Source: Acidaminococcales bacterium
GTDB lineage: Bacteria; Bacillota; Negativicutes; Acidaminococcales; JAISLQ01
Direction: 5' to 3'
DNA: 64,000 nt
Assembly (NCBI GenBank): GCA_031551525.1
Contig: JAVBNN010000023.1
Location: 46,442-110,441 of the forward strand
Shown: positions 13,398-60,202 of the stretch, piece by piece
Numbering within the stretch: position 1 is the first letter of the stretch
Layout of the letters: each line of letters begins with the position of its first letter
Notes under the pieces: model-generated
The model's input: the letters and a program-made list of their open reading frames with translations, nothing else
What the model was told of the DNA's origin: nothing
Database searches by the model: none
Made by a program: the position numbers and the translations under genes

Positions 13398-13443
13398 TGG
13401 AGCCACCAACAGGAATTGAACCTGCGACCCACGCATTACGAAT
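13398..13443 (-). repeat. attL: displaced original 3' fragment of tRNA-Thr (anticodon loop to CCA)
   Basis: The reverse complement reads ATTCGTAATGCGTGGGTCGCAGGTTCAATTCCTGTTGGTGGCTCCA: a canonical T-arm (GCAGG-TTCAATT-CCTGT), acceptor 3' strand and encoded CCA. 41 of 44 nt are identical to 60129-60172. Confidence 0.9.
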
Positions 13444-13535
13444 TTGCTCAAAAAACCTATATTTACGCGTGGTTACGGCATTTATCATTTTTTATCGGTT
13501 GCGAAAAAAGGCTTGAAATCGAGGTCGAATTTTCC

Positions 13536-13557
13536 GGTTGCACACCGGTTGCACACC
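13536..13557 (+). promoter_or_regulatory. Tandem GGTTGCACACC repeats (candidate integrase arm-type sites, attL side)
   Basis: GGTTGCACACC occurs twice in tandem. The same GTTGCACACC pair recurs at 60089-60110 just inside attR. Confidence 0.6.
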
Positions 13558-13566
13558 AAAAAAATT

Positions 13567-13998
13567 TCACCTCACCGCCGCATACACCGCCGCCCCGGCT
13601 ACCAGCCAGGCAATATTGCGCTGTTGCCTAACTACCCGGACTTTTCGCTTCATTTCTTTTTCGTACTGTACTAAGGATTGATTTGCCCTCTCCAATAAGG
13701 CTTTGGACGTCGCCAAGTCTAGCCTGGCCTTGGTTATTTCGTTCCTGTACGTCACTAAGTCCTGCTGCAACTGTTCTAAGGCCTGTTGATATTGCAGTAC
13801 TTTTGCCTGCTGCTCCGTCAAGTCCTGATTGGACGCTGTCAAGTTTGCCATCAGCTGACTGTTGTGCGTCTCGAGCTGAATGAATATCTCTTCCAACCGT
13901 ACCAGTTCCGCCTCCGTCACTTCGTAAGACTGGGCCAAGCAAGGCCCAGCCCACAAGAAGAAGGATAATACCAGCAATAACAAGATACGTCTTTTCAA
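13567..13998 (-). CDS. Spanin-like lysis protein (signal peptide or anchor + coiled coil + C-terminal hydrophobic anchor)
   Basis: Last gene of the holin-endolysin cassette. TTG start with a GGGGGA RBS. N-terminus MKRRILLLLVLSFFLWAGPCLAQ, Q/L/E heptad-rich middle, C-terminus NIAWLVAGAAVYAAVR. Third codon positions are G/C-rich, as in neighbouring phage genes. Confidence 0.5.
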   Translation of the reverse strand: MKRRILLLLVLSFFLWAGPCLAQSYEVTEAELVRLEEIFIQLETHNSQLMANLTASNQDLTEQQAKVLQYQQALEQLQQDLVTYRNEITKARLDLATSKALLERANQSLVQYEKEMKRKVRVVRQQRNIAWLVAGAAVYAAVR

Positions 13999-14032
13999 TT
14001 TGCTTTCCCCCTATCTCCATAAAATCACCGCC

Positions 14033-14692
14033 TCACAGCATGGCCAGCAGATCTTTTTTCTCGTTTATAAAACGATCACGCAGGCCATTTTTGACAACAT
14101 CTTCGCTGCCACAGGTCCAGCGTTCCGGATCCCGCCAAACGCCGTTACCGCGATAGGTAGCAATCTCACAGCAGTAGCGCAAAAAGTTGTAGACGCCGGA
14201 TATAAGCATTTCGTCAAAATTCGGCGCGTCAATATAGGACAGGTTAAGGTAGCCTGGTTGCTTAAACCGCATGCCCTTTAAAAACAATTCCGGTACCCAC
14301 CCGGGGCCGTAATGCACGGCGCGGGAAAACACCATTTCCTTTACCGCGCCCGAGTGTTTGGCCACATCAAAATTGTGCTGGCGCAACAACTCTACCGCCG
14401 GATCGTAGTACATTTTTTGTGCGTACTCGTGCTGTAAGGCGAGAAATTCATCAGGGGCATTTCCCGCTATATGCCGCCACAAGTCGGAAAAGGCCGGTGT
14501 CCCGGGATGAAGATCGGCCAATAAACTGCCGAAAGAATGTTGTCTGTCCAGTAACCAATCGACAAAATCGTCCGCCACCGAAACAATAAACTGGTGAGCG
14601 CCGTAAGATATTCCACCCAGGTCACCAACGCCGGTCGATACCGCGCCAGGCCGGTTGCCGCTCTCATATTTCCCTGAAACACTACCTAACAT
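14033..14692 (-). CDS. Putative endolysin (lysozyme/chitosanase-like glycosidase fold)
   Basis: N-terminal YESGNRPGAVSTGVGDLGGISYGAHQF resembles the Glu...Asp-GG-x-S/T-YG catalytic pattern of lysozyme-fold muramidases. The gene overlaps the holin gene by 11 nt. Confidence 0.55.
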   Translation of the reverse strand: MLGSVSGKYESGNRPGAVSTGVGDLGGISYGAHQFIVSVADDFVDWLLDRQHSFGSLLADLHPGTPAFSDLWRHIAGNAPDEFLALQHEYAQKMYYDPAVELLRQHNFDVAKHSGAVKEMVFSRAVHYGPGWVPELFLKGMRFKQPGYLNLSYIDAPNFDEMLISGVYNFLRYCCEIATYRGNGVWRDPERWTCGSEDVVKNGLRDRFINEKKDLLAML

Positions 14693-15212
14693 CGCGCCGC
14701 CCTCCTCGCTTTATTTTTACCAAATCCAGTAAATCCCCCGCCTGTTCTACGCCCGCCTCTTGCATGTTTTCTAGTATCGACATAGCCTCCGACGCCCCCA
14801 TGTAGGCGACAAATAGTTTTACAAAATATTGCGGCTCACCCAGCTCAAATAGCTTTGTATCAAGCGTGGCCGCCACTAGACACATCAGCGTATACCAGAT
14901 AAACTTCCCGGCAAAGCGGTGTTTCATCGGACCGCTTTGTATATAGCCCGCCTTGCGCGCCTTACGCATATTCCAGACACAGGCGGCCAAGCCCTTTTCC
15001 GCAGCCTCGCAGTCGTCGAGATATTGACGCGTCAGGGCGATCCAGCGCGTAATGAGATCGAACACCACCAAAATGACAAACAGCAGCAGCAGTTTGGTCG
15101 GCTTGGCGGCCAGCGCGGCCACCAAAAAAGACGCCGCCAGTTTGACCGGCCAGGCGTCTGCAAGTGTATGCATTACTTTGATGATTGATAAGTACAGTTC
15201 TTGGATGTTCAA
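14682..15212 (-). CDS. Holin (Phage_holin_4_1-like)
   Basis: 176 aa with 3-4 TM segments and the family-typical ASEAMSILENMQE motif, followed by a charged C-terminal tail. It lies immediately upstream of the endolysin. Confidence 0.75.
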   Translation of the reverse strand: MNIQELYLSIIKVMHTLADAWPVKLAASFLVAALAAKPTKLLLLFVILVVFDLITRWIALTRQYLDDCEAAEKGLAACVWNMRKARKAGYIQSGPMKHRFAGKFIWYTLMCLVAATLDTKLFELGEPQYFVKLFVAYMGASEAMSILENMQEAGVEQAGDLLDLVKIKRGGRRDVR

Positions 15213-15685
15213 TTACCGCCACCTTCTTCCCCCGGCCATACCAGCACCGGCAGCTCGGCAACAAGCTCGTCTACCGTAGGTATGCCCCGCAGTCCGGCCA
15301 TGACTTCATCAAGTATTTCATAGCACTTGGCCCAGGTAGCGTCACGCATTTCTACGCCGCGCTGCCCCTCGGCGGCAAATCTGGGATTGGTGCTGGTAGC
15401 GTAGGTGCAAAGGGCAAGAACGTTGTCATAATTGCGCGTCCTGGCCCATGCGTCAAGGTGGCGTTGTACTGCCGTCGTCAATTGTGCCAGTATTTGTTCA
15501 GGTGCAGGAGGCAATACCGGCTTTAGTGTAATTACTCCATCAATCAACACAATATCTGTAATATCATAATCATCTAAGGATTCCACCACAATCTCCCCGC
15601 GTGTATTCAAGTCGTCTGTGTTCGGCGCATATGCGGTTTTTGCAATGCAATCCTTATTATTTGCAAAAATATACAACATTTTCAA
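15209..15685 (-). CDS. Hypothetical protein, possibly tail-fibre accessory/chaperone
   Basis: 158 aa directly downstream of the distal tail-fibre gene and overlapping the holin start. No firm motif; the call is by position only. Confidence 0.3.
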   Translation of the reverse strand: MKMLYIFANNKDCIAKTAYAPNTDDLNTRGEIVVESLDDYDITDIVLIDGVITLKPVLPPAPEQILAQLTTAVQRHLDAWARTRNYDNVLALCTYATSTNPRFAAEGQRGVEMRDATWAKCYEILDEVMAGLRGIPTVDELVAELPVLVWPGEEGGGN

Positions 15686-15691: not shown

Positions 15692-16915
15692 CTATTTCAC
15701 GCCTACGCAAAGATATTGAGCAGTAGTATTTAAAGTTGTAAGTCCCTCATTACCTTGGCATATGATTTGTGCAGTCACCACACCCGTAGTTTGTACCACA
15801 CTGCACCTTCCCGCTACAACAGCATTTCCCCCTGCAGTGGTCTCGTAGCTATTCAGCCACACCGCACACATACACTGCGTCCTAGTGTAACCACTGGGCA
15901 AAGGTATTGTTCCACCATGAGAAATAGTGCCGCTCGTTACAACAGTCGTGTTTCCCCCGGCGGCGGCATAAGCCGCTATAGCCGCGCGAACAAAAGCCGT
16001 GGTGGCTATCTGCGTACTATTGGTAGCCGTAGCCGCCGTCGGCGCGGTCGGTGTGCCCGTCAATGCAGGAGAGGCCAGATTCGCCTTGGCCGCCAGCGCT
16101 GTGTTCATGTCCGCAGTATTCGCTTTACCACTAACCGCTCCGGTAACAAAAGCCGTCGTCGCCAGTTGTGTAGTATTCACTCCCGCCGCTGCGGTCGGCG
16201 CGGTCGGTGCGCCTGTAAATGCGGGGCTGGCCAGGTTGGCTTTTGTTGCCATATTCGCCTGCACAAAGGCAGTGGTAGCCAACTGCGTATTGCTGGTAGC
16301 CGTAGCCGCCGTCGGCGCCGTTGGCGTACCGGTCAAGGCCGGACTAGCCAGATTTGCCTTGGCCGCCAGCGCGGCGTTCACACCATTGGCCAGATCATAA
16401 GCCGTTTTCACCGCCTTTGAACTGGCAGCAGTGTTGCTGTCAGCGCTCGTCACGCTGTCCGAAAGCGGCGGCGTATCGCCCTTATCACCCTTCGCCCCGG
16501 CCGGACCAGTTGCGCCGGTCGCCCCCTGAATACCCTGCGCGCCTTTGGCCCCGGTAGCGCCAGTTGCGCCCGTATCGCCTTTAGGCCCTTGCAGCCCCTG
16601 CGGCCCTTGCGCCCCGCTGTCACCCTTTGCCCCGGTTGCCCCGGCCGGGCCGGTCGCACCTACGGGGCCTTGCGCTCCGTTAACGCCGTCCGCCCCGCGC
16701 AGGCCTTGTATACCCTCTTGCCCTTGTACTCCGGCTGGGCCCCGCTCGCCGGTCATTACCGGCAGAGCCGTGAACGGCGTCACACCGTCACCCAGTTTAA
16801 AATATGGATTGGGCCCGTCCGTAACCATGCCCAGTTCCCCTTTTAGCAGCACCGGATCGTACAGTTGCCAGTTCGCCAGCGTATCGCGCCGAAATTGTAT
16901 TTGCATTAAAGACAT
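15692..16915 (-). CDS. Tail fibre protein with Mtd/HylP-type N-terminus, collagen-like stalk and tail-fibre repeats
   Basis: N-terminus QFRRDTLANWQLYDPVLLKGELGMVTDG...KLGDGVTPFTALP. About 30 G-X-Y triplets. Three copies of KANLASPA[LF]TG.PTAPTA....T.T.[LI]ATTAFV. Confidence 0.85.
   Translation of the reverse strand: MSLMQIQFRRDTLANWQLYDPVLLKGELGMVTDGPNPYFKLGDGVTPFTALPVMTGERGPAGVQGQEGIQGLRGADGVNGAQGPVGATGPAGATGAKGDSGAQGPQGLQGPKGDTGATGATGAKGAQGIQGATGATGPAGAKGDKGDTPPLSDSVTSADSNTAASSKAVKTAYDLANGVNAALAAKANLASPALTGTPTAPTAATATSNTQLATTAFVQANMATKANLASPAFTGAPTAPTAAAGVNTTQLATTAFVTGAVSGKANTADMNTALAAKANLASPALTGTPTAPTAATATNSTQIATTAFVRAAIAAYAAAGGNTTVVTSGTISHGGTIPLPSGYTRTQCMCAVWLNSYETTAGGNAVVAGRCSVVQTTGVVTAQIICQGNEGLTTLNTTAQYLCVGVK
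16478..16750 (-). repeat. Collagen-like G-X-Y repeat region of distal fibre
   Basis: GERGPAGVQGQEGIQGLRGADGVNGAQGPVGATGPAGATGAKGD... is an uninterrupted Gly-X-Y periodicity over ~90 aa. Confidence 0.9.
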
Positions 16916-16929: not shown

Positions 16930-18057
16930 TCACATAAAATCCGACGCCGTACCGGCGTCTATAACATCTACCTGCGTCTGATAAGCCCCGCCGCAATCAA
17001 TAAGCCCCGTAACCGGAGGCTGTCCGGGCGGCCCCGGCTCTCCCCGGTCGCCCTTGTCACCCTTTATTCCCTGCGCTCCAGTGTCGCCAATCGCGCCCCT
17101 TACACCCTGCGGCCCTTGCGGCCCCTGTGGCCCGGTCGCGCCTATGGAACCGGCGCCTCCCCTTTCTCCCGTCAGCCCTACTGGCCCGGGCGGGCCCTGC
17201 TGCCCTTGTGGGCCGGTCGCGCCGGTAGGCCCGTCCGCACCCTGAACACCCCCATCACCCTGTGTACCCTGCGGGCCGGTCGGACCGGGATCTCCCGGCT
17301 GCCCTCGCGGCACGCCAAACCATATCATATTGGTCTCCGGGTTGTAGATAGCCGACGGCCAGTCCTCGTGCGACACATCATAAGCGGCAGTAGACAACTT
17401 TTCCACATCAAGCGTTTCATCCCACAGACCGTTTCTGCGGCCATAAAGCTTCCCGTCTTCCGGCGCGTCCTTTACAGACGCTCCGGCCAACGCTATCGCC
17501 TCTCCCGCTATCTCTTTCGCCGCATCTGCCGTTTGTACCGCATACTCTATCCCGTCCGGGTTCGCCCCGTAGCGCAGCCCTGCGCCGTCATTCGTAACGG
17601 CGATACTCGCGCCCGGCTCTATAGGCGCCGGCAGCTCGGCATTAAAATCCTCGCTTACCGGAAATACTATAGCCCGGCCGACCTTCTCCCACAGTTGCTG
17701 GATCAGCATCGTGAGTTTGTCCGCCATCTTTTCAATGACTGGGAACGGCCAGCGGTCGCCGAGGTCTACCAGCTGCACCGGCGGCACCTCCCGGTAGAGT
17801 ACCAGCTTCCAGCCCGGCGGCAGTACCTCTGGCCGCTCGTTTTCCGGCGACTCCTCGCCCGGCGCATACCCCGGGTAAAACACCGACTTTTTCGCCATAT
17901 CGACGAAATAATTCTTGGCTAAAAGTTCCTCTTTCCCCTCCGGGTCTACCAGAAGCACCTTCACATGCTCTCTCTCGTGAAAATCGAACTGGCAGGGGAA
18001 CTCCACCGCCATCCCGTTGCCCTGGTAAACCACTTTCGTTAAAGTACCTGGTAACAT
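16930..18057 (-). CDS. Tail fibre protein with T7 gp17-like N-terminal attachment domain and C-terminal collagen-like region
   Basis: N-terminal pattern [18 protein letters not shown]...HVKVLLVD...YFVD...[17 protein letters not shown] resembles the T7 tail-fibre N-terminal domain. G-X-Y repeats span aa 252-347. Confidence 0.75.
17017..17304 (-). repeat. Collagen-like G-X-Y repeat region of proximal fibre
   Basis: [96 protein letters not shown]. Confidence 0.9.
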
Positions 18058-18145: not shown

Positions 18146-18730
18146 TTAATTTTTCTTTGTGTGTTCGTAATGTAAATGGCTCGCGTTTGACGCCAAACAG
18201 TAAGCTATGGTTCTTAAAGTACCGGCCATTTCTATAAAAGTACCGCTAAAGCCTATCCCCTCATAAACCTCCAGCACCTTGATAAACGTCTGCGCCTTGT
18301 CTTTCATGTCTTTAGCCAGAACTTTTATGTCCTCCAGTTCGGTAGGCGAGACCAACGGTACAGGTTTCGGCAACATCGGCGTTGTCGGTACTGGCTGAAC
18401 TGGCGGTAAATTCAAGGTGTAGCTGCCGGTCTTTCTGATAGCCGGTATAACCTCGTGGGTTATCCAGCGTTTAAAGGCTTTGGCTTCGGGCTTACGACTA
18501 TAAAGAACAAGGTGATATAACCCATACTCATTAACTACTGCTAATTCTTGCTTGCCGCCAAGGGTGTGCATTGAACGCACACCCTTTTCATCTTCAGCTA
18601 GCCTGCGGGTTTGCGTTCGCTGTATACCGACGGCCTCACAAACATCATTAGCAACAAACCAAGTTTCGTCCTTCTCAACGATTGTACGAATTTTCTTTTT
18701 CTGAAAATCAAATACCCGCAAATTACCCAT
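18146..18730 (-). CDS. Bro-N domain protein (prophage antirepressor-like)
   Basis: FDFQKKKIRTIVEKDETWFVANDVCEAVGI...NEYGLYHLVLYSRKPEAKAFKRWITHEVIPAIRKTG is the Bro-N/antirepressor signature. ATG at 18730 has a GGGAGG RBS. Confidence 0.85.
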   Translation of the reverse strand: MGNLRVFDFQKKKIRTIVEKDETWFVANDVCEAVGIQRTQTRRLAEDEKGVRSMHTLGGKQELAVVNEYGLYHLVLYSRKPEAKAFKRWITHEVIPAIRKTGSYTLNLPPVQPVPTTPMLPKPVPLVSPTELEDIKVLAKDMKDKAQTFIKVLEVYEGIGFSGTFIEMAGTLRTIAYCLASNASHLHYEHTKKN

Positions 18731-18772
18731 AAATAAAAACCTCCCAAATTTTTGATTTGAAAGAGGTTTCCG

Positions 18773-18795
18773 CTGTGATATAATAGATTTCACAG
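18773..18795 (-). promoter_or_regulatory. Palindrome-flanked 15-nt motif AAATCTATTATATCA upstream of the Bro-N gene
   Basis: Minus strand reads CTGTGAAATCTATTATATCACAG. The identical 15-mer sits at 40796-40810 upstream of the Rha gene at a similar distance from the start codon. Confidence 0.55.
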
Positions 18796-18851: not shown

Positions 18852-18992
18852 CTATTTCTTTTTGCTATCAAGGTCTTTTTGAACAAGCGTAAGAATATAC
18901 TCTTTTAAAGAAAGTCCTCGCTTCGCGGCCTCTACCTTGATAGCCGTATGTTGTTCGCTTGTCACCCTGATAGTTATTGTTCTCTCTTCCAC
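18852..18992 (-). CDS. Ribbon-helix-helix (Arc/CopG-like) small DNA-binding protein, copy 1
   Basis: 46-47 aa, below the ORF-track cutoff: V(V)EERTITIRVTSEQHTAIKVEAAKRGLSLKEYILTLVQKDLDSKKK. GGAGGTGAA RBS. Paralogous to the 40595-40732 product (KEYILELIQKDL). Confidence 0.65.
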   Translation of the reverse strand: MEERTITIRVTSEQHTAIKVEAAKRGLSLKEYILTLVQKDLDSKKK

Positions 18993-19030
18993 CACTTCAC
19001 CTCCTTGTTTTGCAGTATATACTGCATTAC

Positions 19031-19082
19031 TGCAAAAGTCAAGAGGTTTTTATTTTATTAGTAACGTGGTATGATTATGACA
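19031..19082 (+). promoter_or_regulatory. Repeated promoter block, copy 1 (extended -10 TGGTATGAT)
   Basis: GCAAAAGTCAAGAGGTTTTTATTTTATTAGTAACGTGGTATGATTATGACAC is near-identical to 19736-19786. It is preceded by the palindrome TTTTGCAG-N14-CTGCAAAA. Confidence 0.65.
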
Positions 19083-19099
19083 CGGAAGGAAGTGGCAAT

Positions 19100-19447
19100 G
19101 TGGGATATCTTGTATACTTTGCAACAGCAAGCTACTTTTTATTGATGACCGACGATAATGGCCGCATAAATTGGCACGACAACGCAATATCTCTGCTTGG
19201 CTATTTCGCGATGTCCATGCTCTTTTTGTTCTGCCCTTCTTTATCGCTTTTCGCGGCAGTCTCCGGCATTGTATTTCTGTTGCCTTTCATTTCCAGTTTC
19301 CCATCGTCCTTCGCTGTGGGTTACTTTGCCGTCCTTATATTTTTTGCAGTTGCGGCATTCAGCACAAAAAAAGGCAATGTTTCTATTGCCGTCGTATACA
19401 CTGAACTTCGGAAGGAAATCTTGCAGAACATTAAAAGCTCCATATGA
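19100..19447 (+). CDS. Small integral membrane protein (moron, ~115 aa, 3 TM)
   Basis: GTG at 19100 has a GGAAGGAAG RBS 7 nt upstream. It lies downstream of the repeated promoter. The product is strongly hydrophobic and has no recognised family. Confidence 0.5.
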   Translation: MGYLVYFATASYFLLMTDDNGRINWHDNAISLLGYFAMSMLFLFCPSLSLFAAVSGIVFLLPFISSFPSSFAVGYFAVLIFFAVAAFSTKKGNVSIAVVYTELRKEILQNIKSSI

Positions 19448-19508
19448 CTAAAAGGAAACTTCTCGCCAGAATAAACAATCGCTTTATCTTTGACCGGATA
19501 GCGGTTGT

Positions 19509-19688
19509 TTATTTCTTTTTGTCCAGCTCAGACTTCACAAGATTAACCCCTTTTACAATTACTTCTGCTCGGGAAGTTTGTAACTGGTCTGCACACTCCT
19601 GTAAGGTTTTTGCAGTGTCTTGCGCTATTCTGATTTCCAGACGGATATTTTTAGGGTTATCTGTTGGCCTGCCTGTGCGTGGCGTCAT
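19509..19688 (-). CDS. Ribbon-helix-helix (CopG-like) small DNA-binding protein, copy 2
   Basis: 59 aa: MTPRTGRPTDNPKNIRLEIRIAQDTAKTLQECADQLQTSRAEVIVKGVNLVKSELDKKK. GAGGTGA RBS. Its 5' and 3' flanks are homologous to those of the 18852-18992 gene. Confidence 0.6.
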   Translation of the reverse strand: MTPRTGRPTDNPKNIRLEIRIAQDTAKTLQECADQLQTSRAEVIVKGVNLVKSELDKKK

Positions 19689-19735
19689 TTTATCACCTCA
19701 CTTTTGCCCGTGCTTAAATAATAATATATGCCCGT

Positions 19736-19786
19736 GCAAAAGTCAAGAAGTTTCTTTTTTATTAGTAATGTGGTATGATTATGACA
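19736..19786 (+). promoter_or_regulatory. Repeated promoter block, copy 2 (extended -10 TGGTATGAT)
   Basis: GCAAAAGTCAAGAAGTTTCTTTTTTATTAGTAATGTGGTATGATTATGACAC, preceded by ACTTTTGC...GCAAAAGT and a duplicated TGCCCGTGC. Confidence 0.65.
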
Positions 19787-19814
19787 CAATATAGTAAAGG
19801 GGGCGGATTGTTTA

Positions 19815-20555
19815 ATGAATACAGAACAAATTGCAATCACCGCTTTAACTGCTTTTACTACAACAATGGTAAGCAAAGGTGCAGATGCTCCTGCCCGAAC
19901 ACTGAATCTGCTATGGGAATTTATTTTTGGTAAATTTGACGCAATGATGCAAAACAGCATAAGCGCAAGACCCTATAACCTAACAAATTTTGGAAATAAA
20001 ATACACGAATTCACTAAAGACATCCCCCCCGAGCACATCCAAGAACCCGACCTTGCCATTATGGGCCCCGCCCTTGAAGCCTCAAAATATTACATTGAAA
20101 AAGAGCCTATCAGAAACGCGTTTGCAAAACTGATCGCGGCTTCATTCGATGCAAGAAAAAATGAAAGCACACATCATTCTTATGTTGAAATAATTAAACA
20201 GATGAACCCAAACGATGCAAAAATATTTACTAAACTTAAAAACCCATTTTATTTACTATGCTATAGTTTTTCTATAGAGTCACGCCCTTATATAAGACAA
20301 GATATTTATTTGGATGATTGCCACCAAGAGCCTAGTCTGGAAGATAGCATAGCAATTGGTAATCTGGAACGTTTAAATCTCATTGCCATTACAAGGCAAA
20401 GAGGCGGTATTACTACACACTATCCAGAAACACAAGAAATTATCACGCATTTTAAACAAACAAACCTCTATAAAACTTCTAAAGAAGAAATTATATTGGT
20501 CGAACAAGGGTTGCTTACTGAATACGGTTGGAACTTTAGACAGTGTTGTTTATAA
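19815..20555 (+). CDS. Abi-alpha (DUF4393)-like protein, candidate abortive-infection/exclusion factor
   Basis: Central block LAIMGPALEASKYYIEKEPIRNAFAKLIAASFDARKNESTHHSYVEIIKQMNPNDAKIF matches my recollection of the DUF4393/Abi_alpha core (..L...FA.LLA.A.D....HP.FVEII.QL.P.DA.IL). Confidence 0.5.
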   Translation: MNTEQIAITALTAFTTTMVSKGADAPARTLNLLWEFIFGKFDAMMQNSISARPYNLTNFGNKIHEFTKDIPPEHIQEPDLAIMGPALEASKYYIEKEPIRNAFAKLIAASFDARKNESTHHSYVEIIKQMNPNDAKIFTKLKNPFYLLCYSFSIESRPYIRQDIYLDDCHQEPSLEDSIAIGNLERLNLIAITRQRGGITTHYPETQEIITHFKQTNLYKTSKEEIILVEQGLLTEYGWNFRQCCL

Positions 20556-20675
20556 ATCTCTTATTTTTTCATAAATAAAATCCGCCATTTTCAGAGCTAA
20601 CCAGCCGCTTATCGTTACATTAACAACAGAACCTACAACCAATAGCCCAATTAAAAATACATATGTTTCTAACAT
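20550..20675 (-). CDS. 41-aa hydrophobic peptide (hypothetical)
   Basis: MLETYVFLIGLLVVGSVVNVTISGWLALKMADFIYEKIRDL. GAAGGTGAG RBS. Below the ORF-track cutoff, and convergent with the Abi-alpha gene with a 6-nt overlap. Confidence 0.3.
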   Translation of the reverse strand: MLETYVFLIGLLVVGSVVNVTISGWLALKMADFIYEKIRDL

Positions 20676-20748
20676 ATTCTCACCTTCTTTCATTAAATAT
20701 TATTATGTCGCGTCCCGCGTAAACGCGTGGCTTGAAATGGAGGCCCCT

Positions 20749-21105
20749 ATGAAAAAACTACTGCACATTTTCGCGCTGATAGATGTACAGCACATTTTAA
20801 TTTTAGCAACAGTTGCCCTTCTCTACGCGGGCATAATAGGCTTTGATGATATTAAGTATTATGGTTGGGTGCTGTATGGAGCCTCTATCGCATCTTTCTT
20901 TTTGTTCTTAAGCGGGAATTATCAGAGCGAACATAAGACAACCACAAGGGTTTTTCTCGGCTTGATAATGTCACTAAGCGGGCTATCTCTGTCGTTAGAA
21001 ACAGAAAGTATTGTTGGTTTTGAAAAAGTCTCGTTATTTTTCGCAGGCATCATGCTAGTGTTTCTATTGCAAGATATAAATAACGAAACCCCACCGCCCT
21101 GCTAA
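20749..21105 (+). CDS. Small integral membrane protein (moron, 118 aa, 4 TM)
   Basis: ATG at 20749 follows GGAGG with a 5-nt spacer. The product is hydrophobic throughout, and a terminator follows directly. Confidence 0.5.
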   Translation: MKKLLHIFALIDVQHILILATVALLYAGIIGFDDIKYYGWVLYGASIASFFLFLSGNYQSEHKTTTRVFLGLIMSLSGLSLSLETESIVGFEKVSLFFAGIMLVFLLQDINNETPPPC

Positions 21106-47794: not shown

Positions 47795-47804
47795 CAAACC
47801 CACC

Positions 47805-49832: not shown

Positions 49833-49836
49833 GGCG

Positions 49837-50520: not shown

Positions 50521-50521
50521 T

Positions 50522-52167: not shown

Positions 52168-52189
52168 AGTTTCATTCTCCTTTTTTGAT

Positions 52190-52294
52190 TTACTTTGATA
52201 TCCCATCTATCAATTCCCTGTGCCTCAGCACCCAGCAGACGATGGCAACGGCCACCGAAAAGTAAAAGAACTCCCAAAGCAACAAGTCTTTCAT
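52190..52294 (-). CDS. 34-aa hydrophobic peptide (hypothetical)
   Basis: MKDLLLWEFFYFSVAVAIVCWVLRHRELIDGISK. Its ATG overlaps the stop of the upstream 42-aa ORF (ATGA). Confidence 0.3.
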   Translation of the reverse strand: MKDLLLWEFFYFSVAVAIVCWVLRHRELIDGISK

Positions 52295-54041: not shown

Positions 54042-54269
54042 TCAGGCCGTAGTTTTTGCTTGTTTTAACAAATCATTTTTGTTGTTTTCGGCAAAAAAAA
54101 GTAACTCCACTGAAAACCCTGAGTCTTTAGAAATTTCTTTCATAGTCTTTACTGGTGGATTTACCTTACCCTGTTCCCAGTTACTCCAAGTTTGTTGAGT
54201 TACATTGTATTTGTCTGCCATTTCTTGTTGGCTGCGATCTCCGCGATACTTGACTAACATAAAGTTCAT
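54042..54269 (-). CDS. Cro-like XRE-family HTH regulator
   Basis: RSQQEMADKYNVTQQTWSNWEQGKVNP is an HTH_3 motif. Divergent from the repressor gene. GAGGTGA RBS. Confidence 0.8.
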   Translation of the reverse strand: MNFMLVKYRGDRSQQEMADKYNVTQQTWSNWEQGKVNPPVKTMKEISKDSGFSVELLFFAENNKNDLLKQAKTTA

Positions 54270-54421: not shown

Positions 54422-54436
54422 TAGGGTGTGTGTATT

Positions 54437-54799
54437 ATGGATTTAGATAGAACGGCCGTTGCAACGGCTCTCAAAAAACTAAGAGAAGAAAAGGAAATGT
54501 CCCAGCAGGAGTTAGCAAATATGCTTGGCAAGACACAGCAGGCTGTCGATGCTTGGGAGCGTGGCCTTGCTGTGCCCGCGCCTAATATGCTTTCGCGCAT
54601 GGCTACTATTTATGATGTTTCCGTAGACTACCTTCTTGGCCGCACCATTGTCCGGCGGCCTATTGAAACTACCGCTGCACATATGACGGACATCGACGGC
54701 GAATTGACGGACACGGAAGAGGCTAGTCTACGGGCATATCTGGCTATTATGCGCCAGCAGGCAAAAGACAAACAGGCGAAACTGCCGCCGGAGAAATGA
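54437..54799 (+). CDS. CI-like XRE-family repressor (no S24 peptidase domain)
   Basis: MSQQELANMLGKTQQAVDAWERGLAVP is an HTH_3 motif. ~120 aa with an acidic C-terminal extension. Confidence 0.8.
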   Translation: MDLDRTAVATALKKLREEKEMSQQELANMLGKTQQAVDAWERGLAVPAPNMLSRMATIYDVSVDYLLGRTIVRRPIETTAAHMTDIDGELTDTEEASLRAYLAIMRQQAKDKQAKLPPEK

Positions 54800-54982: not shown

Positions 54983-55013
54983 ATAGCCCCTGTACCATTG
55001 GTACGGGGGCTAT
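54983..55013 (+). promoter_or_regulatory. Stable leader hairpin (attenuator or terminator-like) upstream of the Abi_2 RBS
   Basis: ATAGCCCCTGTACC-att-GGTACGGGGGCTAT (14 bp, one G-U) followed by TCGTCTTTCT and then the GGGAGG RBS. Confidence 0.5.
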
Positions 55014-55036
55014 TCGTCTTTCTGGGAGGTTTTATT

Positions 55037-55987
55037 ATGACTGAAAAAGTATTTAAAACTTATGATGAGCAAATTGATCTTTTAGTAAAACGTGGTCTTA
55101 TTGTTGATGATAGAGACAAGGCCATACAAATACTTAAAAAGGAAAATTATTATAATCTTATAAACGGTTATAATGATCTTTTCCTTGCCAATACCCAGCC
55201 GGAGGAATGTTATAAAAAAGGTGCGAATTTTGTTGAAGTATTTGCACTTTATGATTTTGACAGGGTGTTGCGCGAGTTACTTTTGATTGAGCTATTACGC
55301 ATTGAAAAATGTATCCGTACCACAATAACACACGTTTTCTCAAGCCATTATGGACATGATCATCGTACGTATCTTGACCCAGCACATTTTAACACCAGAA
55401 ATGAGGTCAACCAAAAAAACACACAAGAAATTATAGATGACCTGCAAAAGTTAATCCAGTCACATAGCAGTAACCATAAAGCGATTGCCCACTATCTTGA
55501 TAAACATAAATACATCCCCTTGTGGGTATTATCTGCTGTTATAACATTTGGCACTTTGAACAAGTTTTTTACGCAACTGCAATTGGCAAAAAAACAGGAA
55601 ATAACTGCTGCTTTCAATCTTTCTATCAGAGAATTCGAGCCGTTTTTATATATATTATCCAGTTTTAGAAATAAATGTGCCCACGGTGAAAGGATTTATT
55701 ATTACGCAAAAGATGGTGCAAAACCGAGGTTTATTCCGGAACTAAACTATCACCACCGTTTACACATTCCTAAAAACTCCAAAGGCTATAAGTATGGAAC
55801 AAATGATATATTAGCTGTATTGATTACAATGAAGCATTTTATGCCTAAGGATCGTTACGCCACTCTAATTGTAAAAATAGAAGAAATCTTAACAAAACTT
55901 TCTTCGAAGCTTTTTGTTGTAAAAATCGACGAAGTAAACCACATCATGGGCCTCGTACCTAACTGGACAGATTTGAGGAAAATCTAG
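55037..55987 (+). CDS. Abi_2 (AbiD/AbiF-like) abortive infection protein with HEPN-type R-x4-H motif
   Basis: YDEQIDLLVKRGLIV...ENYYNLINGY...LYDFDRVLR...IPLWVLSAVITFGTL...FRNKCAHGERIY has the family hallmarks and RNKCAH. Confidence 0.85.
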   Translation: MTEKVFKTYDEQIDLLVKRGLIVDDRDKAIQILKKENYYNLINGYNDLFLANTQPEECYKKGANFVEVFALYDFDRVLRELLLIELLRIEKCIRTTITHVFSSHYGHDHRTYLDPAHFNTRNEVNQKNTQEIIDDLQKLIQSHSSNHKAIAHYLDKHKYIPLWVLSAVITFGTLNKFFTQLQLAKKQEITAAFNLSIREFEPFLYILSSFRNKCAHGERIYYYAKDGAKPRFIPELNYHHRLHIPKNSKGYKYGTNDILAVLITMKHFMPKDRYATLIVKIEEILTKLSSKLFVVKIDEVNHIMGLVPNWTDLRKI

Positions 55988-56006
55988 AAACATTGGAGCT
56001 TTTACT

Positions 56007-56465
56007 ATGAACTCACTAATCGCCCTTGCCGACCAGGAGAACATTAGCGTTTCATATGACAACGTATTCAAACGCTTTCACACCCTTGGCCTATACAACA
56101 GCGATGGCGCAACACACCAGATAATCCTCGACAACACCCTCAAAAACGACTACCGACTTTGCCGCTGCATTCTCGCCGAAGAACTTGGCCACCACTTCAC
56201 CAGCGTTGGCCCCACCTTCTACAAAGCCGCCAACTTCTGCTTCTGGAAGCTTAACCACATAAAAGCAGAGCTCAAAGCCTTAAAGTGGTCAGCTTTTTAT
56301 CTCATGCCGGAACCTTTGTTGCAGCAAGCCATAAACAGAGAGCATTTTAATATGGGCTATGAATTTGAAGATTACTTTGAAGTAACACCACAACTCTTAA
56401 TTCACCGGCTGCGCTATGTGCCTGACCTTAGCTTTTTGTGCATTAGTGATTTAGCGGAAATGTAA
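56007..56465 (+). CDS. ImmA/IrrE-family (M78) metallopeptidase-like protein with variant EELGH motif
   Basis: The layout is typical of ImmA (QIILDNTL...CRCILAEELGHHF...ELKALKWSAFYLMP), but the first His of HExxH is replaced by Glu. Confidence 0.65.
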   Translation: MNSLIALADQENISVSYDNVFKRFHTLGLYNSDGATHQIILDNTLKNDYRLCRCILAEELGHHFTSVGPTFYKAANFCFWKLNHIKAELKALKWSAFYLMPEPLLQQAINREHFNMGYEFEDYFEVTPQLLIHRLRYVPDLSFLCISDLAEM

Positions 56466-56489
56466 ATACTATACAAAGGGGCTAACAAG

Positions 56490-57044
56490 GTGATTGATAA
56501 TCCAGTGAAAAAATTTTTGTTTTTAGACTACATGAATTACAAGAAAAGGGAAGCGAAAGAAACACAACTCTTTTCTTTATGGATTCATCACAGTGAGCTA
56601 TTATGGACTAACATAAAGTACCTAGTTACCATTTTTCTCGCCTCTATAACTGGCTGGTTTTTCTTGATAGAAAAAGCTAAGGCGCCTGGGGATAAGTACT
56701 ACATGTGTGCTGCTGTGGTATCTCTTCTCTGCCCTATCTTTGTATTTTTTCCATGGCAACTTGGTGTTCGTTGTGTCGATAAACAAAAAGCGATTGAAAA
56801 AAAACTGCCACATATTTTTAATCTTTTTGATGAAATGCCAAACACTGCCATTATGCGCGGGCGTATTATTTATAACCGAATATTTTATACGATAGCCTTT
56901 GTGTGCGCTATATTGCTTGTAATTGCAACAAGTCTGTTAATATGGCCTATAATATGGTCTGTAATATGGTCTTTTACATGCTCCATCCAAAATTTTAAAT
57001 TTATACACAACTTTATAAAAATCATTCTCCCTTTATTTCAGTAA
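56490..57044 (+). CDS. Integral membrane protein (184 aa, 2+2 TM), unknown function
   Basis: GTG start. TM pairs at about aa 45-105 and 135-170. No family recognised. Confidence 0.5.
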   Translation: MIDNPVKKFLFLDYMNYKKREAKETQLFSLWIHHSELLWTNIKYLVTIFLASITGWFFLIEKAKAPGDKYYMCAAVVSLLCPIFVFFPWQLGVRCVDKQKAIEKKLPHIFNLFDEMPNTAIMRGRIIYNRIFYTIAFVCAILLVIATSLLIWPIIWSVIWSFTCSIQNFKFIHNFIKIILPLFQ

Positions 57045-57060
57045 AGAAAGGATCCCCGCC

Positions 57061-57243
57061 ATGATGTTCCCTAAAAAACCAAAATCGCCAGTCCTGCCAG
57101 TTGACCCGGCAGATATTGACGAGCTGGAACGAAGCGTCGTTTCAATAAACGGCAAGCCATACACTGAGACAAGCGAAAAAGAAAAAGCCGCGCTCCGTGA
57201 AGCGCTGGCTGATGAGTGGAGGAAGTATCCGAATAAGGAATAA
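57061..57243 (+). CDS. 60-aa hypothetical protein
   Basis: ATG with an AAAGGA RBS region. The product is hydrophilic and Pro/Glu/Lys-rich. Confidence 0.4.
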   Translation: MMFPKKPKSPVLPVDPADIDELERSVVSINGKPYTETSEKEKAALREALADEWRKYPNKE

Positions 57244-57353
57244 AAAAATTTTGTGGAATATTTTATTGGTTTTTTAAAGTACTAGTTTTCGCCCCAACCG
57301 CTATTTTAGGCCCTTTTTATTGGTTTTTTATTGGTTTTCATTTACAAAAAGGA

Positions 57354-58877
57354 GTGAATTACATCTTGGATTTCAATAAGTTGTCAAGAGAAAATGGCTG
57401 TATAGAATACAAGCTTTGTGCCCATAAACTTCCTGGCACTTTTTGGGAAACTTATTCTGCTTTCGCAAATACCGCTGGCGGCACAATAATACTAGGGGTA
57501 CAAGAAAATGCTCATCACGCGCCTACTATTGAAGGCGTTGTGAATCCTGAAAAAATTATTACTGACCTTTTCAGCACGGCCTCGTCTTTAGAAAAAGTTA
57601 ATCTTAACCTGCTAAAAGAAGAAAACATATCTATAGAAACTAGCGATGATAAAAAATTTATTTGCATTATAATCCCGGAAGCGCCTATGAATAAAAAACC
57701 TGTGTATCTTAAGAAAAACATGAAACTTACGTATATCCGCAAATATGACGGTGATCATATTGCTACAGACGAGGAGCTGCGTGCATTCGTCAGAAATACT
57801 TTTGATAATATTGATAGTGAACTTTTAGATGGTTATGACATAAATGACCTCCACTTTACAAGTATTATTAATTTCAGAACACTTATACAGGAAAGAAATC
57901 CCTCCACAGATTATTCGCAAATGAACCCTACTGATTTTTTACGTCAAATGGGGTTGTTTGGTGAAGACAAAAATGATGGCGGAAAAATAAAACTTACATT
58001 AGGAGGATTATTGTTTTTAGGTAAATATCAATCTATAATAAACAAAATTCCGCATTTTCATTTAGATTATTTTGATAAGCGCGGCAATAGTGAGCGTTGG
58101 CGAGATAGAGTTGCTGCGGGTGATCTTTTATACCCTGAACTTAATGTGTTTTCATACTATTGGACGATTTACAGTAAATTGAAATCCACAATAGAAGAAC
58201 CATTTAAGTTAGACAAAAATATCATTCGTAAATCAGCTATAGAATTAGATGTGGCGTTACGTGAAGCACTAGTAAACATGCTCATTCATGCTGATTATAG
58301 AGAAGCAAGTACTTCATTAACAACTGAAGTACATGATGCATATTATATATTTATAAATCCCGGAATAATGAAAATCTCCCCAAAAGAGTTTTTTACTGGA
58401 GGAATTTCTAAGCCCCGAAACCATGTTTTAACAACTTTATTTCGTAAAATGGGGGTCTCCGAGCGTGCCGGTAGTGGCGGGCCCAAAATATATGATGTTG
58501 TAAATAAAAACCAATTTCGTATGCCAGAACTGGAAACAAACTTGGAAAAAACCATTCTTAAACTATGGGGCGTAGAGTTGGAACATTCTTACCCAGAACT
58601 ATCCGCCAATGCAAAGGCCGTATATTTGGTCTTAAAGGATCCTTCCAATACCTATTCATCTTCACAAATCCAAGACAAAACCAAGTTGAGTAGGCATTAT
58701 TTACGACAAGCACTAAAAGAATTAGAAGATAAGGACTTAATCATAAGAACAGGACAAAAAAAATCTCAGAAATATACTAAAAAAATGTCTAATATAGAGC
58801 TTATTTCCATAATTGACAGAGGATTTAAGCATGCTAAAGATTTATTACTTGCTTACGATAACAAAGAAGATCGGTGA
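57354..58877 (+). CDS. AlbA_2 (Schlafen-like) + HATPase_c_4 + C-terminal wHTH protein
   Basis: N-terminus IEYK...TYSAFANTAGGTIILGV (AlbA_2/divergent AAA). Middle ALREALVNMLIHADYR (RecG-C-like HATPase_c_4). The true start may be the TTG at 57366. Confidence 0.75.
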   Translation: MNYILDFNKLSRENGCIEYKLCAHKLPGTFWETYSAFANTAGGTIILGVQENAHHAPTIEGVVNPEKIITDLFSTASSLEKVNLNLLKEENISIETSDDKKFICIIIPEAPMNKKPVYLKKNMKLTYIRKYDGDHIATDEELRAFVRNTFDNIDSELLDGYDINDLHFTSIINFRTLIQERNPSTDYSQMNPTDFLRQMGLFGEDKNDGGKIKLTLGGLLFLGKYQSIINKIPHFHLDYFDKRGNSERWRDRVAAGDLLYPELNVFSYYWTIYSKLKSTIEEPFKLDKNIIRKSAIELDVALREALVNMLIHADYREASTSLTTEVHDAYYIFINPGIMKISPKEFFTGGISKPRNHVLTTLFRKMGVSERAGSGGPKIYDVVNKNQFRMPELETNLEKTILKLWGVELEHSYPELSANAKAVYLVLKDPSNTYSSSQIQDKTKLSRHYLRQALKELEDKDLIIRTGQKKSQKYTKKMSNIELISIIDRGFKHAKDLLLAYDNKEDR

Positions 58878-58934
58878 CCATGGAAAACTCATTCCATGCC
58901 GACTGTTCCAGCGACAGCCAGCACCAAGGAGCAC

Positions 58935-60050
58935 CACATGACCAAACGCAAACGCCCTAATGGAGAGGGAACCATATATTACGACAAGAAAAAAGACCTC
59001 TGGCGCGCCATGCTGCCGACACCGCTTGGCCGACGCATGACCAAATCCAGCAAAAGCGAAGAAGTAGTCAAGGACTGGTACAACCAGCAGCGCCTGCTTA
59101 TCGGCCGCGGCAAACACATAGAGCCGCACGCTATCACAGTTTTGCAGTGGATAACAGAGTGGCTGGACAGTTATGCCAAAATCAAAGTAAAGCCTCGGAC
59201 ATATGACCGATATGTCAGCATATCCAAACACCTTGCCCCCATTTATCAGGAACGTCTCCTTGCGCTCTCTCCAGCACACCTACAACGCGTTTACAATGGA
59301 ATGCTGAACACTTACTCGCCCCAAACCATAATCTACGTTCACAGCCTCGCACACAACAGCCTGCGGCAAGCCGTACTTAACAACCTAATACACGATAACC
59401 CGGCGGACAAAGTAACCTTACCCAAAAAGACCCGCAAGCCTATAGCCATATACACCCCCGATGAAATCCTTGCCCTGATCGCGGCAGCCGAAAATTACCG
59501 CAATAGCCTAGTCGTCAAACTCACCTACGCCACCGGACTGCGCCTCTCGGAAGTGCTGGCCCTGCGCTGCGAAGATATTAAAGGTAATGATCTTGAAGTA
59601 AATCAAACCGTCCACGAAAGTACCAGCCAAGGCAAATACTACTCGGACACAAAGTCCACCAACTCACGCCGTAAAATACCCATCCCGCAAATCATCGCAA
59701 CGGCCATCGACGAGCACAAACTAAAAACCGGCATACGGCAAGGACTCCTGTTCCTGAATACCCGAAAAACCGGCGAAAGCCCACATAACTACCTAAGCAA
59801 AATCTTCTCAAAAATTCAGGAAGATGCCGGCGCGAAAAAAGGATTTCACTGCCTGCGCCACACACACGCAACCGAACTCCTCAGCTCCGGCATACCCATA
59901 CACGACGTATCGCGTCGCCTTGGCCATGCTAAAGCAAGCTTTACCCTCGATACCTATATCCAATTTATGCCCGCCTCAGATGAACGAATGATAAGTGCGA
60001 TCGACATCCTCTTAAACCTAGACGCCAGAAAAACAAAAACGCCGCAATAG
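58935..60050 (+). CDS. int: Tyrosine recombinase / phage integrase
   Basis: TGLRLSEVLALRCEDI (Arg), HCLRHTHATELL (H-x-x-R), LGHAKASFTLDTYIQF (His and Tyr). AAGGAG RBS at the ATG at 58935. Adjacent to attR. Confidence 0.95.
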   Translation, partial: HMTKRKRPNGEGTIYYDKKKDLWRAMLPTPLGRRMTKSSKSEEVVKDWYNQQRLLIGRGKHIEPHAITVLQWITEWLDSYAKIKVKPRTYDRYVSISKHLAPIYQERLLALSPAHLQRVYNGMLNTYSPQTIIYVHSLAHNSLRQAVLNNLIHDNPADKVTLPKKTRKPIAIYTPDEILALIAAAENYRNSLVVKLTYATGLRLSEVLALRCEDIKGNDLEVNQTVHESTSQGKYYSDTKSTNSRRKIPIPQIIATAIDEHKLKTGIRQGLLFLNTRKTGESPHNYLSKIFSKIQEDAGAKKGFHCLRHTHATELLSSGIPIHDVSRRLGHAKASFTLDTYIQFMPASDERMISAIDILLNLDARKTKTPQ

Positions 60051-60082
60051 CTTAAAAACTACTGCGACGTTTTTTATTTTTT
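60039..60082 (+). terminator. Terminator after int
   Basis: ACGCCGCA...TGCGACGT stem (one mismatch) followed by TTTTTTATTTTTT. Confidence 0.5.
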
Positions 60083-60088
60083 GTTTAC

Positions 60089-60110
60089 GTTGCACACCCG
60101 GTTGCACACC
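60089..60110 (+). promoter_or_regulatory. Tandem GTTGCACACC repeats (candidate integrase arm-type sites, attR side)
   Basis: cGTTGCACACCC gGTTGCACACCC, in the same orientation and with the same sequence as 13536-13557. Confidence 0.6.
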
Positions 60111-60129
60111 CGAAACCTTGAAGGCATTG

Positions 60130-60202
60130 AGCCACCAACATGAATTTAACCTGCGACCAACGCATTACGAATGCGTTGCTCTACCGGCTGAGCTATGGTG
60201 GC
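60130..60202 (-). tRNA. tRNA-Thr (anticodon CGT) whose 3' half is prophage-derived (attR)
   Basis: Manual cloverleaf: acceptor GCCACCA/TGGTGGC, D-arm GCTC-AGCCGGTA-GAGC, anticodon arm ACGCA-TTCGTAA-TGCGT. The T-arm GCAGG-TTAAATT-CATGT has a G52-A62 mismatch and A56. No CCA is encoded. Confidence 0.85.

Follow-up and report, generated by a model that had tools for sequence, protein, structure and literature searches.

A BPP-1/epsilon15/Carin-1-like prophage in the tRNA-Thr(CGT) gene of an Acidaminococcales-like chromosome and its overlapping lysis gene pair

The 64-kb stretch of contig JAVBNN010000023.1 analysed here, referred to as the window in its entirety, harbours a prophage of 46.8 kb at 13398-60202, both ends of which are defined by the duplication of 46 bp from the 3' half of a tRNA-Thr(CGT) gene. 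Based on its attachment sites, its gene content and comparisons to cultured phages and metagenomic relatives, the element resembles the temperate podoviruses BPP-1 and epsilon15 and the phage Carin-1, and its lysis cassette ends in a pair of nearly completely overlapping genes, termed A and B below, that we propose as a candidate analogue of Rz/Rz1.

Attachment sites and virion genes

The sole tRNA gene detected by ARAGORN in the window is the tRNA-Thr(CGT) that the element occupies, and the integration site comprises the following features.

13398-13443: attL, the 46-bp copy of the tRNA-Thr 3' half; original bacterial sequence, with the tRNA terminator hairpin directly after it
58896-60050, plus strand: tyrosine integrase (PF00589), adjoining tRNA-Thr and attR
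60129-60202, minus strand: the intact tRNA-Thr(CGT) gene, containing attR; its phage-supplied 3' half has 3 differences from attL and from the empty site

An empty version of this site is found in an Acidaminococcales metagenome-assembled genome (MAG), where SpoVB, tRNA-Thr and terminator follow one another unbroken at the locus designated L002. In BLASTN, L002 11656-11769 corresponds to window 13449-13335, and L002 9947-11708 to window 61928-60129. As the copy at 13398-13443 is identical to the empty site in a three-way alignment, while the tRNA 3' half at 60129-60202 has three substitutions, we conclude that the latter half was supplied by the phage. The functional tRNA-Thr now runs on this phage-supplied half, and despite the three changes ARAGORN still calls a tRNA. 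Because the att duplication, the terminator at attL, the empty site and the adjoining integrase are found together, 13398-60202 represent the exact limits of the integrated element, as the first-pass annotation of this DNA had placed them. Its description of the prophage as complete-looking is likewise fair, as the gene set covers lysogeny, replication, packaging, head, tail and lysis, no ORF (open reading frame) is broken and all assigned ORFs are intact.

The late region on the minus strand was assigned by PHROGs, Pfam and PDB sequence searches.

39947-40444, minus strand: terminase small subunit (TerS; PHROGs)
38515-39960, minus strand: terminase large subunit (TerL; PHROGs), 53-54% identical to those of epsilon15 and Carin-1
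36512-38275, minus strand: portal of the T7-type Head-tail_con family (PF12236, E 7e-145; Carin-1 8ck0_A, E 7e-94)
36174-36515, minus strand: Bbp19-like small protein (PF25181)
35538-36170, minus strand: scaffold/protease-like protein, homologue of BPP-1 Bbp18 (PHROGs, tblastn)
34507-35520, minus strand: major capsid protein of the epsilon15 GP7 family (PF20911, E 2e-103)
34096-34485, minus strand: capsid cement/decoration protein of 129 aa, homologue of Carin-1 gp42 (33% identity, E 9e-9)
33302-33895, minus strand: tail adaptor, a gp11-like tail tubular protein A (PHROGs; Carin-1 8ck1_E, E 6e-22)
30706-33297, minus strand: tail nozzle, a gp12-like tail tubular protein B (PHROGs; Carin-1 8ck1_A, E 2e-106)
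30231-30740, minus strand: gp13-like internal virion protein (phrog_308; 41% to epsilon15 gp13)
29699-30268, minus strand: T7 gp14-family internal virion protein (PF24072, 40.8 bits, cut-off 27)
27412-29607, minus strand: putative ejection protein of 731 aa that occupies the gp15 position and carries a peptidoglycan endopeptidase domain (NlpC/P60)
21124-27393, minus strand: putative giant internal/ejection protein of 2089 aa at the place that gp16 has in T7, with an LPD3 domain; its homologues are Bbp10 of BPP-1 and gp32 of Carin-1
16930-18057, minus strand: fibre 1, with a tail-attachment N-domain of ~130 aa followed by a collagen repeat
15692-16915, minus strand: fibre 2, with an Mtd_N/HylP-like N-terminus, a collagen triple helix and Phage_fiber_2 repeats

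The module is arranged as TerS-TerL-portal-(Bbp19-like)-scaffold/protease-like-capsid-cement-adaptor-nozzle-gp13/gp14/gp15-like-giant-fibres-lysis, and the structural gene order proposed earlier is borne out by the PHROGs, Pfam and PDB matches to the solved tail of Carin-1 (the 8ck1 entry is the Carin-1 tail, as per Foldseek's own description). AlphaFold2 models made from metagenomic-homologue alignments have pLDDT (predicted local distance difference test) values of 84 (adaptor) and 79 (nozzle). In a Foldseek comparison to the PDB, the adaptor model matches the Carin-1 connector with a template modelling (TM) score of 0.83 and T7 gp11 with E 1e-5 and TM ~0.6, other fold matches being LME-1, PhiM1, HRP29 and KP32 tail tubular protein A. 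The nozzle model matches Carin-1 with E 1e-49 and TM 0.7 and T7 gp12 with E 1.6e-20 and TM 0.52-0.56, and further matches are to LME-1 and HRP29. Hence, the Foldseek comparison suggested by the first-pass annotation recovers both T7 folds, with Carin-1 much stronger. Pfam detects no domain in the adaptor or the nozzle of the window, and the nozzles of relatives have a precomputed hit to PF25675 (Phage_nozzle). The nozzle homologues fall into two length classes of ~750 and ~865 aa, with the window nozzle in the long class through an extra segment of ~110 aa, and some relatives are extended to ~900 aa by Gly_rich_2 (PF21722).

As stated earlier, no tape measure, tail tube or sheath gene is apparent, since none of the ORFs of at least 80 aa in 13.4-40.4 kb matches such families in PHROGs or Pfam. 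The original designation as T7/BPP-1/P22-style machinery holds for BPP-1 and, at fold level only, for T7. For P22 it finds no support: the portal is T7-type, the tail is of the adaptor-nozzle kind, and the PHROGs/Pfam searches returned no P22 family match for a P22-type portal, a gp4/gp10/gp26 needle or a tailspike.

The two fibres differ in their tail-proximal parts. The N-domain of fibre 1, which had been called T7 gp17-like, matches, by profile, the N-terminus of the Carin-1 Dpo31/tail fibre (E 1.5e-17) and, by tblastn, both the N-terminal part of the epsilon15 tailspike and Bbp9 of BPP-1. The match to T7 gp17 itself is marginal but in register (BLASTP E 0.009, residues 7-100 vs 7-100; hhalign 18%). 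For fibre 2, the Mtd/HylP-like N-terminus noted before is confirmed by a Pfam Mtd_N hit above cut-off (E 6e-9, 36 bits, cut-off 26.3) and by a match of its N-terminus with the structure of a prophage hyaluronidase. Only the Mtd_N domain of fibre 2 recalls a diversity-generating retroelement, as the window has no reverse transcriptase ORF, no Avd and no repeat resembling a template/variable repeat pair. In a relative, the locus L062, an Mtd-like gene (PF21916, mtd_2nd) is followed by an RVT_1 reverse transcriptase at 11761-14417, i.e. a BPP-1-type retroelement of this kind. Among the internal proteins, the 2089-aa protein has no match in the PDB sequence search, and the hydrolase domains in the gp15 position vary: NlpC/P60 in the window, SLT with Peptidase_M15_3 in Selenomonas (L046 13531-15765), and SLT in BPP-1 (bbp11) and epsilon15.

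Phage relatives and host

All 43 prophage proteins were compared by tblastn to four complete phage genomes, which gave 11 shared proteins for BPP-1, 10 for Carin-1, 9 for epsilon15 and none for T7. The gene order is collinear with the former three, including the lysis cassette just before att, at protein identities of 24-54%. BPP-1, a Rauchvirus of Bordetella, is also a temperate podovirus at a tRNA 3' end and has the same order, lysis-fibres-giant-peptidoglycan hydrolase-internal-nozzle-adaptor-cement-capsid-Bbp18-Bbp19-portal-terminase-replication-integrase. The likeness extends to exonuclease, PolA and SNF2 among the 11 matches (in the replication region, four proteins are common to both: nuclease, PolA, a VRR-NUC-like protein and SNF2) and to the Mtd_N and Bbp19 Pfam domains. 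In contrast, identities to BPP-1 reach only 24-40%, its host is of another phylum, and BPP-1 carries the retroelement that the window lacks. Its ejection protein has a lytic transglycosylase domain in place of NlpC/P60, and the prophage fibres are collagen-like.

Epsilon15, a Uetakevirus of Salmonella, has in common the TerL (54%), TerS, portal, GP7 capsid, adaptor, nozzle, gp13, gp14 and tailspike N-domain, as well as the order holin-endolysin-overlapping gene pair-att-integrase. It differs in its replication module, in a tailspike instead of collagen fibres, in an Rz/Rz1 pair of the canonical embedded kind, the o-spanin of which is a lipoprotein, and in the giant protein, which is split into gp15-gp17 but in one piece in the prophage. 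Carin-1 from Cobetia (PDB 8CK0/8CK1) provides the best structural matches for nozzle, adaptor, portal and fibre N-domain and also shares the cement and giant proteins, whereas it infects a marine gammaproteobacterium, has an exopolysaccharide depolymerase as its fibre and carries other replication and lysogeny genes. With T7, the prophage shares the folds of the adaptor (Foldseek E 1e-5) and of the nozzle (Foldseek E 1e-20), a protein of the gp14 family in Pfam and the layout portal-adaptor-nozzle-internal core proteins. Contrary to T7, it is temperate, lacks a phage RNA polymerase and has an epsilon15-type capsid with cement.

In the cultured-phage collection, the portal matches 221 records, all below 60% identity, and an even sample of 60 of these contains proteobacterial hosts or environmental sequences only. 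Matches to the nozzle are likewise from proteobacterial hosts or environmental sequences, bar one metagenome-derived Caudoviricetes record with the host written as Methanomicrobiales. With protein identities of 24-54% and every portal match below 60%, the prophage would fall outside the genera Rauchvirus and Uetakevirus.

The closest relatives are metagenomic, at 44-67% amino-acid identity, with a maximum of ~67% even in the adaptor. Homologues of the nozzle number more than 880 at E <= 1e-10; the closest of them are 44-53% identical, and the named ones are from Selenomonas sp. TAMA-11512 and Selenomonadales MAGs. The named relatives of the adaptor are mostly Selenomonadales as well, with one from a MAG labelled Bacteroidales. 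In Selenomonas sp. TAMA-11512 the virion module lies within a complete 2.59-Mb chromosome, in the order TerS, TerL, portal, Bbp19, scaffold, GP7, adaptor, nozzle (PF25675), T7_gp14, peptidoglycan hydrolase protein and a giant protein of 3190 aa. In IMG/VR, at least 40 contigs (35-45 kb) encode portals 51-55% identical to that of the prophage and share the core from TerL through gp14, and two relatives found via fibre-1 homologues, one of them L062, have the same downstream layout. TerL is ~60% identical to Negativicute-associated IMG/VR relatives, almost matched by epsilon15 and Carin-1 (53-54%), as opposed to 31-36% for portal and nozzle vs proteobacterial phages, a contrast that hints at module-specific exchange.

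The group had been called sparsely described, which is correct for the searchable literature, where searches for Negativicute podoviruses or Negativicute spanins returned nothing specific, yet it is abundant in metagenomes, as the nozzle homologues demonstrate. The one large survey found there, of 485 Negativicute prophages, concluded that these are mostly lambdoid, Firmicute-like and unlikely to derive from Proteobacteria, and its text contains neither 'podovir' nor 'BPP-1' (Rands, Brussow and Zdobnov 2019, bioRxiv 10.1101/606087). The lineage of the present prophage is an exception outside the coverage of that study.

The host was addressed through the SpoVB-like protein of the right flank (60259-61866), used to scan one genome per species. 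Four loci were returned, namely L002 in the Acidaminococcales MAG mentioned above (80% amino-acid identity), a second Acidaminococcales MAG (61%) and two Megasphaera genomes (54%). Against L002, the right flank is 80% identical at the amino-acid and 72% at the nucleotide level, with synteny of SpoVB and tRNA-Thr. The left flank is not syntenic with this MAG, and at 1253-5505 on the minus strand it contains a resistance-nodulation-division (RND) efflux permease and a periplasmic membrane-fusion adaptor, with no outer-membrane factor gene adjoining. A lineage look-up places Acidaminococcales within the class Negativicutes. Negativicutes are Firmicutes with an outer membrane containing lipopolysaccharide (LPS). 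Judged from these sequence similarities, the host appears to be an Acidaminococcales-like Negativicute, i.e. a Firmicute with an outer membrane. Therefore, of the two alternatives left by the first-pass annotation, a diderm Firmicute host such as a Negativicute or an unusual lineage infecting monoderms, the former holds, supported by the Acidaminococcales and Megasphaera flank matches together with the phage relatives in Selenomonas and Selenomonadales. The proposed taxonomic check of the flanks points away from a proteobacterium, and their Firmicute-type genes (SpoVB-like, FapA) are present as described. Of the Firmicutes-like expression signals, Shine-Dalgarno motifs are frequent, and the TGnTATAAT motif, with 6 occurrences vs ~2 expected, is weakly enriched only.

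Taken together, we consider the element to be a temperate podovirus of the BPP-1/epsilon15/Carin-1 kind, inserted by its integrase in the tRNA-Thr(CGT) of an Acidaminococcales-like Negativicute chromosome, at a probability of roughly 0.85. It is a divergent new representative of these known phages in an unusual host clade. Several points count against this interpretation. Within the 64-kb window there are no genes for outer-membrane or LPS biogenesis, only the RND pump with its periplasmic adaptor, and the diderm envelope of the host is derived from taxonomy, while the identity of the host depends on likeness to MAGs and not on a named isolate. The T7 likeness of adaptor and nozzle lies at the level of the predicted folds only, and hhalign of the adaptor and nozzle alignments vs the single T7 gp11 and gp12 sequences gives probabilities of 0.2% and 5%. 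Finally, the inducibility of the prophage is hypothetical.

The absence of outer-membrane biogenesis genes from the window, together with the Firmicute-type SpoVB-like and FapA genes, could also fit an ordinary monoderm Firmicute, in which case an adaptor/nozzle podovirus would infect a monoderm. We regard such a host as very improbable, as the nearest flank genomes, Acidaminococcales and Megasphaera, are both Negativicutes, the named phage relatives reside in Selenomonas and Selenomonadales, and the RND pump of the window has a periplasmic adaptor. No more credible is a chimera of a proteobacterial phage and Firmicute DNA that arose in assembly or binning, an origin barely worth entertaining even though the DNA seems to come from a draft assembly, on a contig of 120,861 bp, and all sampled cultured relatives infect Proteobacteria: the 46-bp att duplication of the host tRNA is precise, the original terminator is retained at attL, a related MAG provides the empty site, the same module is found inside the complete Selenomonas chromosome, and the closest relatives are metagenomic at 44-67% identity vs 24-54% for proteobacterial phages. 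That the prophage is complete-looking but defective or domesticated, and yields no infectious particles, is unlikely, albeit not negligibly so. Two low-GC cargo islands break up the late and lysogeny regions, and the phage-derived tRNA half has 3 mismatches; on the other hand, the expected genes are all intact with normal codon usage, both att sites are intact and the tRNA is still called by ARAGORN.

For the temperate podovirus that we favour, the following infection cycle can be envisaged by analogy to T7-type podoviruses. The fibres would bind a surface receptor, and the adaptor-nozzle complex would dock onto the outer membrane. The gp14-like, NlpC/P60 and 2089-aa proteins would then be ejected to form a channel by which the DNA crosses both membranes and the peptidoglycan between them. 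Lysogeny is presumably governed by the two divergently oriented XRE proteins, the ImmA-like protease and the anti-repressor Ant, and the genome would be replicated by the PolA, VapE, SNF2, single-stranded DNA-binding protein (SSB) and nuclease module. Lysis would proceed through holin and endolysin, and then the overlapping B/A pair.

The predicted trans-envelope ejection apparatus and the replication module described here occur, among the sampled cultured relatives, in phages of Proteobacteria throughout. If the prophage represents a Negativicute-wide clade of such podoviruses, then phages of diderm Firmicutes and those of Proteobacteria would have traded modules for virion and replication, which would contradict the published view of Negativicute prophages as essentially Firmicute-type. 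Whether Negativicute phages follow host ancestry or envelope type is an explicit question, for which this lineage allows a concrete test. Its members are also candidate tools and receptor probes for gut and oral bacteria of the Veillonella, Selenomonas and Acidaminococcus type.

The overlapping gene pair of the lysis cassette

The lysis cassette lies between the fibre genes and attL.

15209-15685, minus strand: unassigned protein of 158 aa downstream of the fibre genes, with no family match
14682-15212, minus strand: holin (Phage_holin_4_1)
14033-14692, minus strand: endolysin with a VgrG3-like C-terminal lysozyme-type domain (PF21277, E 6e-34)
13628-14020, minus strand: lysis gene B (130 aa), which shares ~370 nt with A and is read in the -1 frame; predicted N-terminal transmembrane domain and helical periplasmic domain
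13567-13998, minus strand: lysis gene A, 143 aa; signal peptide of the signal peptidase I type, heptad coiled coil of ~95 aa and, at the C-terminus, a short hydrophobic anchor with K/R at its end

The frame of gene A has normal codon usage, and its family comprises 258 cluster representatives of uniformly 125-160 aa, with no match in the cultured-phage collection. Its members directly follow four types of endolysin, VgrG3-like in the window and Amidase_2, Glucosaminidase or Amidase_3 elsewhere, and in the loci examined the A/B pair invariably closes the lysis cassette, behind the endolysin. The cassette order holin-endolysin-pair-att equals that of holin-endolysin-Rz/Rz1-att in epsilon15. We considered A as a lipoprotein, i.e. 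a unimolecular u-spanin, and rejected this, since the family alignment shows no conservation of the cysteine close to the cleavage site and many members have xSA|x at the cleavage position, which is not a lipobox. The dismissal of ORF 13628-14020 as a spurious overlap, based on its codon usage, was rejected too, as the frame is conserved in all homologous loci.

Counted from the start of A, no stop interrupts the -1 frame for 303-396 nt in 14 of 14 homologous loci, and this frame closes ~60 nt short of the stop of A; an open stretch in the +1 frame never exceeds 135 nt in these loci. Upon synonymous-codon shuffling of A, the open -1 frame has p = 0-0.06 per locus. For B, a separate Shine-Dalgarno sequence and ATG are usually present; in L062, a podophage relative, a single AAGGAGG precedes the ATGs of both A and B, which are 4 nt apart and in different frames. 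Only one of the two genes is annotated by gene callers, and the choice varies, with B called in L062 and A in L063. Between these two loci, the proportion of synonymous differences (pS) of A is 0.57, below that of five neighbouring genes (0.69-0.92). The C-terminus of B has the conserved motif LIxEG(K/Q)SIL..VR.R. Against Rz-like spanin PHROGs, B gives repeated N-to-N hits that are sub-threshold (E 0.006-0.05), and its profile aligns to epsilon15 Rz in hhalign with a probability of 33% and E 4e-4, with the transmembrane domains in register.

Like A and B, the Rz/Rz1 genes of lambda and epsilon15 and 18.5/18.7 of T7 come last in the cassette after the endolysin, as two genes in different frames of one DNA stretch, and Rz has the architecture predicted for B, with an N-terminal transmembrane domain and a helical periplasmic domain. 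Rz1, however, is a short proline-rich lipoprotein, while A is as long as B, overlaps it almost completely from nearly the same start and has no conserved lipobox. The unimolecular spanin gp11 of T1 shares with A the end-to-end topology of an N-terminal export signal and a C-terminal anchor, again with the difference that the lipobox is not conserved in A. The single spanin-like gene of the first-pass annotation is hence really two overlapping genes, of which B is a candidate Rz-like i-spanin as judged from its sequence, although the pair is not a canonical spanin.

We propose, at even odds, that the A/B pair performs a third, outer-membrane step of lysis as an analogue of Rz/Rz1, with B anchored in the inner membrane and A a secreted coiled-coil protein that is independent of lipoprotein sorting. 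A two-component spanin analogue without a lipoprotein is suggested because a published study detected LolA/LolB homologues in none of the Negativicute genomes (Antunes et al. 2016, PMC5007114). Alternatively, frame B may be a by-product of the coiled-coil composition of A, or the pair may have another role in lysis, such as holin regulation or superinfection exclusion; this is a real possibility, if clearly short of probable. In its favour, and to the detriment of our proposal, shuffle means of 110-230 nt indicate that the amino-acid composition of A alone favours a long open -1 frame, frame B has a ratio of nonsynonymous to synonymous rates (dN/dS) of ~1, and neither A nor B reaches significance against any spanin family. 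The missing conserved lipobox of A adds to this, and as A and B both could be anchored in the inner membrane, contact to the outer membrane is hypothetical. Most carrier loci of the pair moreover come without host assignment. Against this alternative stand a -1 frame that is open from the start of A in all 14 diverged loci when the +1 frame never is, the separate Shine-Dalgarno sequence and ATG of B and its conserved N-terminal transmembrane domain, and gene callers picking A in some genomes and B in others. The pS of A, lower than in its neighbours, and the constant place after the endolysin, as for Rz/Rz1 of epsilon15, count against it as well.

The combined claim, that B/A is a previously unrecognised, lipoprotein-independent system for outer-membrane disruption in Negativicute phages and that the prophage belongs to a Negativicute-wide BPP-1/epsilon15-like clade, is tentative, and we place it a little under even odds. 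If it is correct, B/A would serve hosts without the LolA/LolB pathway that canonical Rz1-type o-spanins need, and some relatives would translate A and B from one ribosome-binding site in two frames. The pair makes it testable how phages get through an outer membrane with OmpM as its tether and no supply through Lol.

Early region and cargo islands

The remaining genes of the prophage comprise the replication operon, the regulators and two groups of cargo genes.

18146-18793, minus strand: anti-repressor, Ant-like (PHROGs/Pfam)
18977-21105, plus strand: low-GC moron island of four ORFs opposite to the late strand, with an Abi_alpha / PADLOC candidate PDC-S47 at 19815-20555
40849-41394, plus strand: Rha
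41427-41834, minus strand: sigma-r4-like transcriptional regulator
41831-52206, minus strand: early/replication operon
41831-42103, minus strand: NrdD-C-terminal-like protein of 90 aa (PF13597, 26.6 bits)
42100-42390, minus strand: dATP/dGTP diphosphohydrolase N-domain protein, adjoining the NrdD-like protein
42387-43661, minus strand: SNF2 helicase
43772-44062, minus strand: VRR-NUC protein
44262-46793, minus strand: VapE primase-helicase
46858-47613, plus strand: DNA-binding protein of 251 aa, within the early region
47805-49832, minus strand: family-A DNA polymerase
49837-50535, minus strand: Enc34-type SSB
50522-51715, minus strand: DUF2800 PD-(D/E)XK nuclease
54042-54269, minus strand: Cro-like XRE-type helix-turn-helix protein, in a divergent pair with the cI-like protein
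54428-54799, plus strand: cI-like XRE-type helix-turn-helix protein, in a divergent pair with the Cro-like protein
54998-58877, plus strand: low-GC cargo on the lysogeny strand, which also holds an ORF of 184 aa
54998-55987, plus strand: AbiD/Abi_2 (PADLOC, E 1e-58)
56007-56465, plus strand: ImmA/M78-like protein
57354-58877, plus strand: Schlafen-AlbA_2/HATPase_c_4 protein

The match of the 90-aa protein of the early operon to the anaerobic ribonucleotide reductase NrdD is confined to the far C-terminal end, where the glycyl-radical region lies, and the protein may represent a stand-alone glycyl-radical 'spare part' fit for an anaerobic host. Both cargo islands have a GC content of 0.38-0.42, are encoded opposite to the phage operons and contain several ORFs without a family, and their genes are probably prophage-encoded defence. 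In the moron island, two adjacent unassigned ORFs contain a 53-nt direct repeat, at 19031-19083 and 19735-19787, the copies of which are 92% identical.

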